64,000 nucleotides of DNA, taken from IMG/VR virus record IMGVR_UViG_3300020204_000007, positions 96,001-160,000 of that record. One strand, 5' to 3'. This stretch comes from a virus. The notes beneath the pieces were generated by a model. The model did not search any database. It saw only the letters and a program-made list of their open reading frames with translations, and had not been told where the DNA came from. Below, in pieces: positions 5,858 through 10,849 of the stretch (positions are counted from its first letter, which is position 1; the number at the start of each line of letters is the position of its first letter). The position numbers were made by a program, and so were the translations under genes.

Positions 5858-6102
5858 GCACTGTCCAACTTTTTTACACTGTCCAAGGTTTTTACACTGT
5901 ATAGTTTGTGTACAGTTGTACAACTTTTATACACTGTCGAATGTTTATACACACTGTATAACACCTATACACTGTACAATCCTTAGCCGCCTAAAAATTG
6001 GCCGGGGGTGTCGAAATTTTATACAGGAAAAATCGACCGCCGAGGGTGTAAAAACTTTATACACTGTGTCGAAATTTTAGTCGGCTAATTTTTGGACACT
6101 GT
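5858..6102. repeat. array of (A/G)CACTGT heptamers, about 18-bp period; candidate terminus/packaging or origin element
   Basis: Copies at 5858, 5876, 5894, 5931, 5951, 5969, 6061, 6096 in non-coding DNA. Confidence 0.8.
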
Positions 6103-6121
6103 TTATTTTTTAAACACCCCC

Positions 6122-6156
6122 TTGGCACGGTTTTTGCTACAGCAAATTGCGTGCCA
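6122..6156. promoter_or_regulatory. head-to-head pair of sigma-54 -24/-12 boxes
   Basis: TTGGCACGGTTTTTGCT (+, 6122-6138) and TGGCACGCAATTTGCT (-, 6141-6156); exact GG-N10-GC. Confidence 0.8.
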
Positions 6157-6166
6157 TTGCACGGGT

Positions 6167-6195
6167 TTAAGTTTACCAATAGCGGTTGCCGATAA
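6167..6195 (+). promoter_or_regulatory. sigma-28-type promoter, long-spacer class
   Basis: TTAAGTTT-N13-GCCGATAA followed by 5' hairpin and GGAGG RBS. Confidence 0.7.
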
Positions 6196-6243
6196 ATATA
6201 TTGTAAGGAGCGAGTGTTCCTTACAAAACATCGGAGGTTTACC

Positions 6244-6672
6244 ATGGCAAAAATTGCTCGCTACGCTGGCCGGGAGTTGCAAATCGTAAACGCAGTAATT
6301 GCCGCTTTTGGCGGCAAGGAAATTTGGAACCAGGATTTAGCATCCTGGCTCCGCAGCCAGTTTCCCGACGTGCTCGGCGGCACCCGCGCCGCCGAAAATT
6401 TCCTGGAAGCCGTCGGCATGGCGGATTTTGCCAGCGCCCACTCCCGCACCGGCAAGCCCCGCACCCTCGGATACGCCGCATTCCGCGGCGTGCGCCGCCA
6501 CCGGGCTGGCGAGCCTGCCCACACCGAGCCTCGCGCTCGGTACTGGGTTATTCCCAGTCGACCCTACACCGCCCTGCTTACTAAGCAGGAAGTATTCGCC
6601 CGCCTAGGGGCAGCCGTGCCACGGCCGCTCCCCACCAAGGAGCGCACCACACCCTACCACAAGGTAGGGTAA
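6244..6672 (+). CDS. basic early protein, related to 8457-8864 and 9494-9883
   Basis: GGAGG RBS, ATG 6244; IVNAVIAAFGGKEIWNQDLASWLRSQFPDVL aligns with paralogues; followed by GC hairpin. Confidence 0.75.
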   Translation: MAKIARYAGRELQIVNAVIAAFGGKEIWNQDLASWLRSQFPDVLGGTRAAENFLEAVGMADFASAHSRTGKPRTLGYAAFRGVRRHRAGEPAHTEPRARYWVIPSRPYTALLTKQEVFARLGAAVPRPLPTKERTTPYHKVG

Positions 6673-6775
6673 TCCCGCGGGGGGCGCAAGCCCCCAACAC
6701 TCCCCCACATTTTAGTGGCTACGGGGGACGTAGCATCCACACCCAACGGGGGTACAGCCCCCACAGGAGGTTTCC

Positions 6776-6946
6776 ATGTCCAACAACCAACGCTCCATCC
6801 TGTCCGCACCCAACCCTTTCGACCCATCCAACGACTGGGTGGACGAGTGGGATATGCCCACCGACCCCTACGAACTCCTGGACCGGGAGTACCGTAGGGA
6901 GGAAGCCCTCGAACTCGCTAAGGAACGAAAATACGGAAGGGGGTAA
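6776..6946 (+). CDS. small acidic hypothetical protein (56 aa, not in ORF track)
   Basis: AGGAGG RBS; MSNNQRSILSAPNPFDPSNDWVDEWDMPTDPYELLDREYRREEALELAKERKYGRG. Confidence 0.7.
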   Translation: MSNNQRSILSAPNPFDPSNDWVDEWDMPTDPYELLDREYRREEALELAKERKYGRG

Positions 6947-7030
6947 TACCCCTCCGCTCCCACCACATTTAGTGGCTCGGTGGGACGAGCAAAACAACCA
7001 ACGGGGGCTCCGCCCCCACAGGAGGATACT

Positions 7031-7285
7031 ATGTCCAACAACAACTCCATCCTCGTTTACCGCGCATATGCCACCGAGGGCGTCCATGCCCTCGTGTTGG
7101 CGAGCACTGCTCGCTCGTTCCACCCCGACGAGGTCGGGTGCTACCGACGGGAGGTGGATGTCCTCCTCCCCTGCGGGCGGCGGGTAACCGCCCGCAAGGA
7201 GGCCGGGTTCGACGGCCTCGGCTCCGGCCAATACTCGGGGTGGGGCATCCCCGAGGAGGACGGGGGTTACCACCTGCAATGGTAG
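7031..7285 (+). CDS. hypothetical protein
   Basis: AGGAGG RBS, MSNNNSIL start resembling 6776 gene; terminator follows. Confidence 0.7.
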   Translation: MSNNNSILVYRAYATEGVHALVLASTARSFHPDEVGCYRREVDVLLPCGRRVTARKEAGFDGLGSGQYSGWGIPEEDGGYHLQW

Positions 7286-7291
7286 TCCCAC

Positions 7292-7319
7292 GGGGGGGTA
7301 ACCCCCCCATCCTTTTTTT
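7292..7319 (+). terminator. intrinsic terminator
   Basis: G7-TAA-C7 stem then T run. Confidence 0.8.
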
Positions 7320-7348
7320 ACTACTGGATAACAGAGCTCTGTTATTAC

Positions 7349-7432
7349 TTGGCACAGTTATTGCTTATTGTTCCTTTAACAGAATTCTGTTATTACTTGG
7401 CACATAACTTGCTATAGCAACAACTATGCCAA
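7349..7432. promoter_or_regulatory. three sigma-54 boxes (one single, one head-to-head pair)
   Basis: TTGGCACAGTTATTGCT 7349-7365(+), TTGGCACATAACTTGCT 7397-7413(+), TTGGCATAGTTGTTGCT 7416-7432(-). Confidence 0.8.
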
Positions 7433-7451
7433 TGGAATCTGTTATTTAAAT

Positions 7452-7480
7452 TTAAGTTTACCGTTAGTGGATACCGATAA
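7452..7480 (+). promoter_or_regulatory. sigma-28-type promoter, long-spacer class
   Basis: TTAAGTTT-N13-ACCGATAA, then TGTAGG..CCTACA hairpin. Confidence 0.7.
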
Positions 7481-8921: not shown

Positions 8922-8938
8922 TTGGCATAGTTGTTGCT
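8922..8938 (+). promoter_or_regulatory. single sigma-54 box with no downstream sense gene
   Basis: TTGGCATAGTTGTTGCT pointing into a terminator about 40 bp away. Confidence 0.7.
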
Positions 8939-8974
8939 TACTGTCCCTTTAACAGAGCTCTGTTATATAGCAAC

Positions 8975-9002
8975 AAAAAAAAAGCCCTGTTAAGGGCTTT
9001 TT
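8975..9002. terminator. bidirectional terminator
   Basis: A9-GCCCT-GTTA-AGGGC-T5 between convergent cassettes. Confidence 0.8.
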
Positions 9003-9250
9003 GGGTCGTCGTACCAACAAGGGATTGGTTGTTCGACGTGTTCGCCGTTGCATTGCATATCGATTAGCTCCAGCGTTCCATGCATGCTACCATCCTTCGG
9101 GATGTTAATTTGGACAAGCTTTTGTCCAAAATTAAATCGAACACTAACATGGTCGTCGGACTGTATGTTTTCCACATACAAACCGGATATTAAAATGTCG
9201 TTGTTTGCTGCAAGGTTTGTTAGCAGCGCGTAAAATTCGTTTCCATCCAT
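8990..9250 (-). CDS. small cassette protein
   Basis: AAAGGG RBS, MDGNEFYALL start; promoter at 9294-9322. Confidence 0.75.
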   Translation of the reverse strand: MDGNEFYALLTNLAANNDILISGLYVENIQSDDHVSVRFNFGQKLVQINIPKDGSMHGTLELIDMQCNGEHVEQPIPCWYDDPKSP

Positions 9251-9293
9251 GTTCGACCCTTTCGATGTTTGCAGGATAATCCCTGCAATATAT

Positions 9294-9322
9294 TTATCGG
9301 TACCCAACAAAGGTAAACTTAA
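9294..9322 (-). promoter_or_regulatory. sigma-28-type promoter, long-spacer class
   Basis: Reverse complement TTAAGTTT-N13-ACCGATAA; same core as 7950 and 8382. Confidence 0.7.
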
Positions 9323-9493
9323 ATTTTAATAACAGAGCATCTAAAGCTTCTTTACAGAGTTCTGTTACTTGTAAATCTTTACAGAACTCTGTTGCATCTA
9401 GTCTTGTCTGCTCTGTTCTATTACAATCTAATTACAGAGCTCTGTTGTAGATGCCAAAAAGAGAAAGGGGTGGCTAGCCCCCTGAGGGGGGTG

Positions 9494-9883
9494 TTAGCCC
9501 TCCTCCTTCTGGGATGCAACCAAGCCAAACACGAGCTTGGGTTTCTTGGTCGGGAGCGGAGTGGACAGCTTGTCAAGGCAATCCGCTTTGGCTACAGTAG
9601 TATCGGTGTTTTCTGGTACTTTCCAGTAGCGTTTCTTGCCATCCTTAATCCCTTCAAGGAAAGCAATACCAACGACACCCTTTTTAGTTCTGGAGGATGC
9701 AAAGTCAACGCTTGCAAGGTGTTCGACAGCACCGTCAGCACGACCGCTTGGAAACATTTCTGGCAAGGTAGCAACCAAGTAATCCTTCAGGGTTTGGTTG
9801 TGGACGATTTGTCCTGCAAACTTGTCAAGGATGGCTGCGATAACAAGGTCAAGGTGCTCGGAATTCTTCTTGGAAAAGCTCAT
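9494..9883 (-). CDS. cassette protein, close paralogue of 8457-8864
   Basis: AAGGAG RBS, MSFSKKNSEHL start. Confidence 0.85.
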   Translation of the reverse strand: MSFSKKNSEHLDLVIAAILDKFAGQIVHNQTLKDYLVATLPEMFPSGRADGAVEHLASVDFASSRTKKGVVGIAFLEGIKDGKKRYWKVPENTDTTVAKADCLDKLSTPLPTKKPKLVFGLVASQKEEG

Positions 9884-9931
9884 AGCGATACTCCTTACAG
9901 TGTGTGTTGCAGGATAATCCCTGCATTTACT

Positions 9932-9960
9932 GTATCGGTACCCAACAAAGGTAAACTTAA
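9932..9960 (-). promoter_or_regulatory. sigma-28-type promoter, long-spacer class
   Basis: Reverse complement TTAAGTTT-N13-ACCGATAC; 9908-10006 repeats 9270-9368. Confidence 0.7.
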
Positions 9961-10218
9961 ATTTTAATAACAGAGCATCTAAAGCTTCTTTACAGAGTTC
10001 TGTTACCTCTAGCACCAATACAGAGCTCTGTTATTTGTAGATTAATCTGTTAACTCTGAATCTAGTCTACTCATGAAAACTAGTTCTACGTCTAATAACA
10101 GAGTTCTATTACTACAACCAACAAGAAATGACACCCCCCTGTCACTGGGGGATGCCAAACACATCAGGGGGGTACCAAGAGTTTATTTCCATACCCCCAA
10201 CTCTAAGGGGTTGACTAC

Positions 10219-10458
10219 CTATTCGGCAGTCTCCAAGTCTCGTAGTTCGCCAAAACACAGATGAGGCTGGCTATTGGCGATTCTTTTGGTTTCTTCCTTG
10301 CCATATTGCTCTACCATTTCTGCCTTTAGTTGTTTAAGATTAACCAACGCCTTTTCTCGGGCGCGTTCTTCTTTCCAATACGCATTACCTTCTGCGGCAT
10401 TATGATAACTAACTTGGTTGATTGCTGCTAGAAATTGATCAATAAGTTGTTGGCTCAT
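10219..10458 (-). CDS. hypothetical protein
   Basis: AGGAGA RBS. Confidence 0.7.
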   Translation of the reverse strand: MSQQLIDQFLAAINQVSYHNAAEGNAYWKEERAREKALVNLKQLKAEMVEQYGKEETKRIANSQPHLCFGELRDLETAE

Positions 10459-10473
10459 AATATTCTCCTATGG

Positions 10474-10656
10474 TTATTCATCAAAGTTAATATCGTCGGC
10501 ATCAATATAGCCACTACTGATCACGCTGTCAATAGCTTCTTCAATATCCTGCTCTTCCACATCAACCAACTCGACAATATAGTCTATTTGTTTGTCGGTC
10601 AATTTAACTGTGTATCTTCTTTTAAGGGTGCTAATAACTTCTTGCTTGGTGTTCAT
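10474..10656 (-). CDS. small acidic protein
   Basis: AGGAGG RBS, promoter directly upstream. Confidence 0.7.
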   Translation of the reverse strand: MNTKQEVISTLKRRYTVKLTDKQIDYIVELVDVEEQDIEEAIDSVISSGYIDADDINFDE

Positions 10657-10677
10657 ATGCTGTTCCTCCTACATAAC

Positions 10678-10704
10678 ATATCGGAACAACCAAATCTAAC
10701 TTTA
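10678..10704 (-). promoter_or_regulatory. sigma-28-type promoter
   Basis: Reverse complement TAAA-GTTAGATTTGGTTGT-TCCGATAT. Confidence 0.8.
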
Positions 10705-10849
10705 GGGGTTTTTTATTTGTCGAATATCATTTTTTATATGGCAAATTAGTCTATTAAGATGCTATAATAGAAGTAACATCTACTCATTTCGCCCTCATAA
10801 ATTGGGGGTTTTTCTGTTTACGGCATAAAAAAAAGAAGACTTTTAAGAT

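Follow-up and report, generated by a model that had tools for sequence, protein, structure and literature searches.

We report an island of small gene cassettes in the genome of a phage that we label a virulent, uncultured lake myovirus. The DNA analyzed, hereafter the window, is a 64,000-nt stretch comprising bases 96,001-160,000 of the 169,059-bp IMG/VR phage record IMGVR_UViG_3300020204_000007; coordinates are window positions unless otherwise specified. The island, a block of ~4 kb at 5807-10130, contains six transcription units that carry eight small genes (g1-g8) and share a compound regulatory module, and it is GC-rich and nearly free of the trinucleotides TCW (TCA, TCT) and WGA (TGA, AGA). 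We consider it probable that the island is a hyperplastic accessory-gene region: that is, a region in which cassettes are shuffled by homologous recombination at the regulatory repeats.

Results

The transcription units of the island share one regulatory module

The initial annotation of this DNA proposed that a unit comprising a terminator, a palindrome, a sigma-54 box or box pair, a sigma-28 promoter, a 5' hairpin, a ribosome-binding site (RBS), and a short gene is repeated along the island. All of these elements are found where proposed, in counts far above chance. In order, the shared elements are a Rho-independent terminator (G-run/C-run stem plus T-run), between one and three ACAGA-RY-TCTGT palindromes, sigma-54-type boxes (in modules of the + arm only), one or two ATCTGTTAT half-sites, a promoter-like box of the form TTTAAGTTTACC-N8-GG-N-T-R-CCGATAA, a stabilizing 5' hairpin of 7-11 bp with a folding energy of -10 to -15 kcal/mol, and an RBS. 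Every spacer contains a composite terminator stem-loop, with a stem of the G7-N-C7 type and a T-run, together with a promoter-like box; six of the eight genes have their own promoter box and terminator, and only g2 and g3 are promoter-less.

The motifs that define the module are restricted to the island, with a single exception. All 12 ACAGA-RY-TCTGT palindromes (0 expected) lie at 7331-10031, with none elsewhere in the genome, and all six copies of TAAGTTT-N-CCGATA (0 expected) lie in the island, at 6168, 7453, 7951, and 8383 on the + strand and at 9295 and 9933 on the - strand. The sigma-54-type 16-mer TGGCAY-N5-TTGCW occurs 12 times in the window (0.25 expected), and these 12 copies are all the copies in the 169-kb genome; 11 are at 6123-8938, all in the + arm, and the remaining one, TGGCACAACTATTGCA, is at 61984-61999 on the - strand, in the late/structural region. 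Terminator-like sites number 40, vs. 6.8 expected, and include sites at 7292-7308, 7766-7790, 8254-8273, 8866-8885, and 8979-9002. A scan for sigma-70-type promoters detected no enrichment (11 vs. 7.3 expected), and an Rfam search over 5500-11300 yielded nothing near gathering scores.

The modules are also strikingly alike in sequence. The intergenic blocks that had been described as near-identical share 95% identity (7877-7995 vs. 8309-8427) and 93% identity (9269-9373 vs. 9907-10011); the promoter cores of the two arms, which are in inverted orientation, are up to 100% identical; and likeness among the six modules ranges from 61% to 100%.

The + arm comprises the units g1-g2-g3 (6244-7285), g4 (7526-7777), g5 (8024-8251), and g6 (8457-8864). 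About seven TGT-N11-ACA / TACACTGT iterons (5844-6117), which are ~85% conserved in relatives and always lie directly upstream of the first winged-helix gene, are followed by a face-to-face pair of sigma-54-type boxes (6123-6156), a TTAAG-N17-CCGATAA sigma-28-type promoter (6167-6195, + strand), and a hairpin (6201-6226). The unit at 6244 had been listed among the single-gene cassettes; it does have its own promoter, but it is a three-gene operon, in which g1 (6244-6672, 142 aa) is followed by g2 (6776-6946, 56 aa, an acidic ORFan) and g3 (7031-7285, 84 aa, an ORFan). The promoter-less linkers of this operon, at 6673-6775 (with hairpins and an RBS) and 6947-7030, are repeats that reach into the first codons of g2 and g3, with 49 nt repeated.

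Three complete + strand modules follow. Module 1 (7292-7525) contains a terminator (7292-7319), palindromes (7331-7342 and 7379-7390), a single sigma-54-type box (7350-7365), a sigma-54-type pair (7398-7431), a half-site (7438-7446), a sigma-28-type box (7452-7480), a hairpin (7487-7506), and an RBS, and precedes g4 (83 aa, an acidic ORFan). Module 2 (7766-8023) contains a terminator (7766-7797), palindromes (7809-7820 and 7857-7868), a single sigma-54-type box (7828-7843), a pair (7878-7911), half-sites (7918 and 7936), a sigma-28-type box (7950-7978), and a hairpin (7985-8004), and precedes g5 (75 aa, acidic). Module 3 (8254-8456) contains a terminator (8254-8281), one palindrome (8291-8302), a pair (8310-8343), half-sites, a sigma-28-type box (8382-8410), and a hairpin (8418-8435), and precedes g6 (135 aa, winged-helix family). 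The + arm ends in a gene-less orphan module (8866-8970) comprising a terminator, palindromes at 8904-8915 and 8952-8963, a sigma-54-type box at 8923-8938, and a pair truncated at 'TATAGCAAC'. The orphan module reads as a recombination scar.

The two arms converge, as had been proposed, on a bidirectional terminator (8971-9005, with the terminator-like site at 8979-9002). The - arm comprises g7 (9250-8990, 86 aa, acidic) and g8 (9883-9494, 129 aa, winged-helix family), and its description as a mirror image of the + arm without sigma-54 boxes requires one correction: sigma-54 boxes are indeed absent, but palindromes are present there too, three per unit. The g7 module (9251-9493) contains a hairpin (9269-9288), a sigma-28-type box (9293-9322), palindromes (9354-9365, 9381-9392, and 9434-9445), and, within it, the g8 terminator (9465-9483); the g8 module (9884-10157) contains a hairpin (9908-9925), a sigma-28-type box (9931-9960), palindromes (9992-10003 and 10020-10031), an imperfect palindrome copy (10098-10109), and, within it, the g9 terminator (10129-10157), all on the - strand.

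On one side, the island is bordered by g9 and g10 (10219-10704, - strand), which are driven by a promoter (10678-10704) of the phage's general sigma-28-type class and therefore belong to the flank rather than to the cassette set; g9 is kept in all relatives. On the other side, directly upstream of the iterons, is a 156-aa protein (5287-5757, + strand) that carries the zinc-protease motif HELMH and a signal resembling that of lipoproteins (...CTASC...).

Related loci differ by insertion, replacement, and inversion of single genes

We compared the island with five related loci: four contigs from lake metagenomes (L011-L014) and L015, a 14.9-kb portion of an IMG/VR contig 35 kb long. L015 is syntenic with the window, having an alliinase gene, a 153-aa HExxH protein (46% identity to the 156-aa HELMH protein), iterons, GC-rich g1', g5', and convergent g8' and g9'. 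The palindromes of the relatives are AGACGTCT or, in L012, AGAGCTCT, and have an AGA-N2-TCT core in common with those of the window phage.

The initial annotation predicted gain, loss, and shuffling of cassettes at the repeats, and the comparison supports this. L014 and L015 are 94% identical across their flanks. In L015, the stem of the g5' terminator is separated from its T-run by an additional 59-aa gene that has its own RBS, and ~29-nt direct repeats enclose an additional ~106-nt module with a face-to-face sigma-54 pair. In L011, a different 52-aa gene stands in place of the promoter and g5' of L014 and L015; three-way alignment of L014, L015, and L011 shows that the replacement is bounded by the terminator and the palindrome, and that similarity restarts exactly at the CAGACGTCTAG palindrome. 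In L012, g8' is inverted relative to g9'. Cassette content is not invariant: single genes have been inserted, replaced, or inverted among L011, L012, L014, and L015, and the breakpoints fall in terminators and palindromes. None of the relatives has a counterpart of g2, g3, g4, or g7, and these four genes have no homolog outside this phage; reciprocally, the NVIDLNEY gene of the relatives has no counterpart among the open reading frames (ORFs) of the island and its flanks (4000-13000). Searches of IMG/VR with the g6 protein and the promoter-block pattern returned no match, and searches with flanking proteins A3 and A4 returned only the same 35-kb contig and an unrelated phage of 56% GC (L018) with none of the features.

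The modules of the window cannot be aligned to their positional counterparts in L015. Because modules are far more alike within the genome than to positional counterparts in other genomes, they carry a signature of intragenomic exchange. In one lake population, moreover, the flank of the g8 promoter -10 element has been converted to the g7 form, and the phage encodes a RecA/UvsX-like protein (PF00154, E 1.4e-25) in a 363-aa ORF outside the window (G000:C1:41094-41849, - strand). The homogenized modules, the promoter conversion, and the RecA-like gene support the proposal that homologous recombination occurs between the repeats.

Lake populations also vary within the island. The g1 gene is polymorphic at 6264-6651, with an alternative N-terminal allele in run X1 and, in run X11, a stretch of ~10-15% divergence in a region (4000-12500) that elsewhere has few differences. 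In three lake runs, unitigs track the module to 7891 and 7993 and then enter unrelated sequence that is not TCW-purged, suggesting that the module promoter block is linked at 7891/7993 to other DNA in the community, which may belong to a related phage.

The island encodes one predicted regulator family and dissimilar acidic proteins

The annotated difference among cargo genes holds for g3, g4, g5, and g7, which are mutually dissimilar (a g5 profile has no similarity to g3, g4, or g7), but not for g1, g6, and g8, which are paralogs (g6 vs. g8, 58% identity; g1, ~25% to both). Searches of Pfam and PHROGs with all ten proteins (g1-g10) gave nothing significant, and a Pfam search with distant members of the g8 family gave no match. 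The g1/g6/g8 family has 17 close metagenome homologs and 11 clusters at E <1e-8 among 1.84 billion representatives. An AlphaFold model of g8, with a predicted local distance difference test (pLDDT) score of 76, has helices at residues 8-22, 29-39, and 50-56 and strands at 26-28, 76-81, and 84-88; its best structural matches are all winged-helix domains, yet weak ones (Foldseek E at least 0.39, VIA Z 5.0-6.6). The model predicts that g1, g6, and g8 form a basic winged-helix family, of which g1 is a divergent member. Members of the family have pI 8.4-10.7, with g1 the most basic (pI 10.7), whereas g2-g5, g7, g9, and g10 are small and acidic (pI 4.1-5.8). Weak homologs of g5 are present in L014 and L015, and one further homolog was found; g7 has no homolog among 5.8 billion proteins. 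A structure model of g5 (pLDDT 65) was too poor for structure search. The leaders of g4 and g7 are alike, on opposite strands.

Depletion of TCW and WGA tracks the strand that is read

As a GC plot had been expected to show, the island (GC 0.46-0.62) stands out from its surroundings (~0.35) in a genome of 36% GC. Gene GC ranges from 67% (g3) to 43% (g7), with 64% for g1. A zone at 5807-9334 is nearly free of TCA, TCT, TGA, and AGA and holds the genome's longest TCW/WGA-free run, 1526 nt (5807-7333); the mean gap between sites in the genome is 13.4 nt, the next longest run outside the island is 145 nt, and whole-genome TCW/WGA frequency is at expectation. The predicted transcripts T1-T5 (g1 to g7) contain 2 sense TCW vs. 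61 expected and 0 WGA vs. 71 expected. The sites left over are in palindromes and in half-sites of spacers predicted to be untranscribed, with more than 20 AGA/TCT in intergenic palindromes. TCW is missing on the sense strand only in g8, in g8' of L015, L011, and L013 (not L012), and in the NVIDLNEY genes, and a two-strand purge beside the iterons is common to L014 and L015. The island also lies within the genome's longest GATC-free run (5306 nt, 5131-10437; next longest, 2501 nt; 428 GATC found vs. 562 expected genome-wide). A codon-level cause of the purge was considered and rejected: out-of-frame and opposite-strand copies are missing as well. Because sites remain in operators and depletion tracks the read strand, selection on transcripts or on the displaced non-template strand is favored over classical restriction avoidance.

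These observations bear on a different account of the region, which overlaps with cassette exchange and which we regard as possible, though not probable: namely, that 5807-9334 is a stealth zone, the first DNA to enter or to be read, purged of TCW/WGA because those sites are targeted by a host nuclease or modifier or by phage thymidine hypermodification, with the cassettes secondary. The near-absence of sites from T1-T5, the 1526-nt run, the purge common to L014 and L015, and the missing GATC would all be accommodated, and there are precedents: T5-like phages, in which absence of defense sites from the first-injected, pre-early DNA matters, are restrictable only via sites in that region (PMC10644984), and thymidine hypermodification depends on sequence context (PMC8989533). 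By analogy, these precedents may leave readings at the DNA level alive. However, the sites retained in intergenic palindromes would defeat avoidance at the DNA level; the sense-only depletion in g8, g8', and the NVIDLNEY genes points to transcripts or the displaced non-template strand, not to duplex DNA; and the account presumes that the island is at the entering end and that there is an enzyme with TCW specificity.

A narrower proposal, which we hold to be doubtful, is that 5'-TCW-3' is kept out of the transcribed parts of cassettes on whichever strands are read, and that the remaining copies mark untranscribed operators. The cause could be TCW-context thymidine hypermodification by the phage, giving a modification-free template and modification-marked operators, or a host TCW-specific enzyme that acts on single-stranded DNA or RNA; under either option, sigma-54 boxes facing both ways would set which strands are read. 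If true, this would be a new form of sequence-level stealth, tied to transcription instead of to duplex restriction sites.

Promoter boxes resemble bacterial sigma-28 and sigma-54 elements

Besides the island promoters, the phage has a general class of 19 promoters, TAAAGTTAGAT-N8-TCCGATAT, at 10704-41347 and nowhere else in the genome. Each is 20-55 nt ahead of an RBS and start codon, many with a 5' hairpin after the promoter, and they precede small early-type genes and nucleotide-metabolism genes. Canonical sigma-28 geometry, TAAAG-N15-CCGATA, is present in 18 of the 19, the remaining one being TTAAG-N14. The six annotated sigma-28 promoters of the island exist as boxes, with a correction to their geometry: they are TTAAG-N17-CCGATA, with a spacer 2 nt longer than that of the general class, whereas island promoters of the relatives have N15. 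In Bdellovibrio bacteriovorus, the attack-phase promoters that FliA reads have the form TTAAG-N16-CCGATA (Karunker et al., 2013, PMC3627812).

The sigma-54-type boxes satisfy the extended consensus TGGCAC-N5-TTGCW (GG at -24 and GC at -12, at fixed spacing) and are kept in relatives despite divergent surroundings. A genome search for sigma-70 region 2, sigma-54, and enhancer-binding proteins found none of them in the phage, so host sigma factors are the likeliest readers of the phage promoters. A 188-aa ORF (G000:C1:72973-73539, - strand; L009:1291-1857) has a weak sigma-70 region-4-like helix-turn-helix and was rejected as a sigma factor, since its E value of 0.004 misses the cut-off and it has no region 2; from its sequence, it could be a very divergent transcription factor. 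A literature search found no paper on early promoters of sigma-28 or sigma-54 type in phages.

The two types of box are fused in a fixed order in L011 and L013-L015: the sigma-54 16-mer, exactly 5 nt, and TTAAG/TAAAG-N15-CCGATA (~9 cases). When 185,579 bacterial species genomes were scanned for a sigma-54 box fused with a sigma-28-type box, nine hits were obtained, with two pairs conserved between species. Three of the nine, in two Ca. Electronema species and a deltaproteobacterial metagenome-assembled genome (MAG), sit before type IV pilin genes (N_methyl domain; L021:6920-7448, L027:1590-2109, and L023:7392-7998), with a -12 to -10 distance of 25 nt, as in the phage relatives. Because the nested sigma-54 to sigma-28 arrangement is conserved before pilin genes at the identical distance, it is a natural bacterial design. 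Two Nitrospinaceae MAGs (L026, L028) have a similar conserved sigma-54/sigma-28 pair ahead of an unknown gene. The face-to-face sigma-54 pair, in contrast, occurs in none of the 185,579 genomes and is therefore no borrowed host motif.

The face-to-face pairs raise the question of whether the sigma-54-type boxes are cargo promoters at all. We judge it unlikely, at the level of a tentative alternative, that they are instead high-affinity docking sites at which host sigma-54 polymerase stays in a silent closed complex (serving as decoy, roadblock, or insulator), antisense launchers, or sites for a phage protein of the same specificity. The pairs have non-complementary spacers, implying that selection acts on both strands but on nothing beyond the -24 and -12 elements; the orphan box at 8923 faces the antisense strand of g7, and L012 has a single reverse box; no enhancer-binding protein is present in the phage; the pair is an independent present/absent module between the ~29-nt direct repeats; and the genes with a box directed into the antisense strand are those that are TCW-purged on both strands. 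Promoter function is argued for by the single boxes of the relatives, which are co-oriented with the gene at a fixed 5 nt from the sigma-28-type box, as in the bacterial pilin promoters, and L014, which lacks the pair module, still has the two-strand purge.

Foreign origin, site-specific recombination, and mis-assembly are disfavored

A GC of up to 67%, with a third-codon-position GC (GC3) of 0.86 in g3, in a 36% GC genome, and a GC gradient that could reflect amelioration, invite the interpretation that the island was recently acquired from a high-GC organism or phage by moron accretion, with the repeats being duplicated promoters. We consider this improbable. The first genes past the iterons in L014 and L015 are equally GC-rich (0.59-0.66) although g1 and g1' share just 27% identity, and because high GC is kept at the same position despite this divergence, it is not a fading trace of foreign origin. 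The homologs found come from metagenomes alone, none from an NCBI genome source, and the promoters are of the phage's own type.

It is more improbable still that the palindromes are attC-like sites on which an unrecognized recombinase acts, be it the winged-helix proteins or an enzyme of the host. Every cassette is palindrome-flanked, and one breakpoint of the L011 vs. L014 replacement coincides with CAGACGTCTAG; but the 169-kb genome contains no tyrosine or serine recombinase (PF00589, PF00239), integrase, resolvase, or intI, the palindromes, as perfect dyads of 8-12 bp, look like typical operators, the half-sites adjoin the -35 element like activator sites, and the other breakpoints fall in terminators.

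Mis-assembly of the array is scarcely credible: unitigs end within every repeat, leaving cassette order to the original assembly alone, but at least half of the island's sampled words are present in 14 of the 19 sequencing runs listed, unitigs of four lake runs connect each cargo gene to its own flanking modules, so that cassette content is secure, and the same architecture is found in independent related contigs. The artifact that the initial annotation had raised as a concern is thus not borne out for cassette content.

The 19 runs are all lake or drinking-water metagenomes, with no RNA run among them, and have 19 study codes, all but one from 2018, possibly reflecting a single campaign. The record itself is linear, without terminal repeats, and has a completeness rating of 100%; among its genes are a helicase and others of tail and baseplate type, and matches to PHROGs are few. 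Comparison of the island with 50,697 phage records by blastn gave no match. Because a 1032-aa structural protein has no match by tblastn and the helicase has tblastn matches of at most 30% identity, homology yields no cultured relative and no host. The window also contains a tRNA-Ile gene with anticodon TAT (43435-43510, + strand).

Discussion

The preferred reading, cassette shuffling by homologous recombination, suggests a simple mechanism. A phage RecA-type system would act on the near-identical modules, so that the intervening genes could be exchanged, deleted, duplicated, or inverted with transcription units left intact. Transcription would be carried out by host RNA polymerase with a FliA-type sigma-28, and the sigma-54-type boxes would dock host sigma-54 polymerase, providing a second expression route or competing with sigma-28. 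In what is the weakest step of the proposal, the g1/g6/g8 family might act as the island regulator, on the palindromes or on the upstream iterons. The variable acidic ORFans would be adaptive cargo, probably host-takeover or anti-defense proteins. As to timing, small acidic ORFans, strong promoters with 5' hairpins, and the purged zone would suit an early role such as the first-expressed, host-takeover one of the initial annotation, and the extra operators and over-long spacer would suit a regulated, possibly delayed, class equally well.

Several points weigh against this reading. The related loci number only five and represent about three lineages, and four are fragments of 2-4 kb. The breakpoints in terminators might equally come from illegitimate recombination. 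The high GC and the TCW/WGA purge are left unexplained. The evidence for use of sigma-28 and sigma-54 consists of consensus matches and their conservation, and relative to the sigma-28 geometry TAAA(G)-N15-GCCGATAA, the island promoters of the window phage are 2 nt over. Most sigma-54 boxes of the window phage stand in face-to-face pairs whose distance from the promoter varies, and that of L012 is single and reverse-oriented; such boxes are more in keeping with a site for docking or binding than with a simple promoter. The structural matches to winged-helix domains are weak, with Z no higher than 6.6, and binding of palindromes by g1, g6, and g8 is a prediction.

The closest known case is the promoter-early stem-loop (PeSL) cassettes of T4-type phages, in which a G/C stem-loop terminator and an early promoter flank ORFans (Arbiol et al., 2010, PMC2839356; Comeau et al., 2014, PMC4122927). 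PeSL cassettes mediate deletion, insertion, and replacement and were likened by their authors to integrons without integrase (PMC2839356, PMC4122927). The island likewise has a composite G-run/C-run terminator and a strong promoter repeated among ORFans in a hyperplastic region, has indels and replacements between relatives with breakpoints within the elements, and has no integrase, so that the phage's own recombination system is invoked. It differs in that its promoter is of sigma-28 type rather than sigma-70 type; its modules add sigma-54-type boxes, palindromic operators, and 5' hairpins; it has a conserved winged-helix gene family, with cargo that is GC-rich and motif-purged; and the phage is not demonstrably T4-like. 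Judged from sequence, the island thus appears to follow the known PeSL logic in a new form, as regards promoter type, added elements, gene family, and base composition.

Other systems are less close. The initial annotation likened the island to an integron array without an integrase; intI is indeed absent, and both systems have tandem, exchangeable single-gene cassettes with palindromic sequences between, but the likeness is an analogy only, because each cassette of the island has its own promoter and terminator in place of a single Pc promoter, and the island's palindromes are short perfect dyads, not attC sites. Morons of lambdoid phages are without conserved flanking repeats and are thought to come by illegitimate recombination. 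The flanks of the island, in contrast, are repeated modules, and its high GC is conserved among relatives; what it has in common with morons, which are promoter-gene-terminator units of deviant composition (as discussed in PMC2839356), is autonomous transcription units that differ from their surroundings in base composition and are inserted between conserved genes. The T5 first-step-transfer region is also a block of small genes, early ones in T5, bounded by repeat-rich non-coding DNA; in the island, the purged motif is a degenerate trinucleotide, purged in predicted transcripts and not in all DNA.

For the promoters, the nearest likenesses are bacterial. The -35 TTAAG/TAAAG and -10 CCGATA elements are those of the sigma-28 (FliA) and Bdellovibrio attack-phase class, and the phage's general class has canonical spacing; the island class differs in being N17, and FliA of the host is a putative reader. 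The Ca. Electronema and deltaproteobacterial pilin promoters have sigma-54 then sigma-28, with 25 nt from -12 to -10, as do the cassettes of the relatives, but they are single chromosomal promoters outside any cassette array, whereas the boxes of the window phage are rearranged to face-to-face pairs.

Shuffling of the PeSL type has been documented so far only in T4-like phages with sigma-70 promoters, and we probably find it here in an unrelated, uncultured lake phage, built from promoter elements of alternative-sigma type together with operators. This suggests that large virulent phages have a general solution in regulatory repeats at which genes can be swapped. Among the variable acidic ORFans there may be new proteins for host takeover or anti-defense, and the island offers a compact test bed for use of host sigma-28 and sigma-54 by phages, for the role of the winged-helix family, and for the purge of a degenerate trinucleotide from predicted transcripts.

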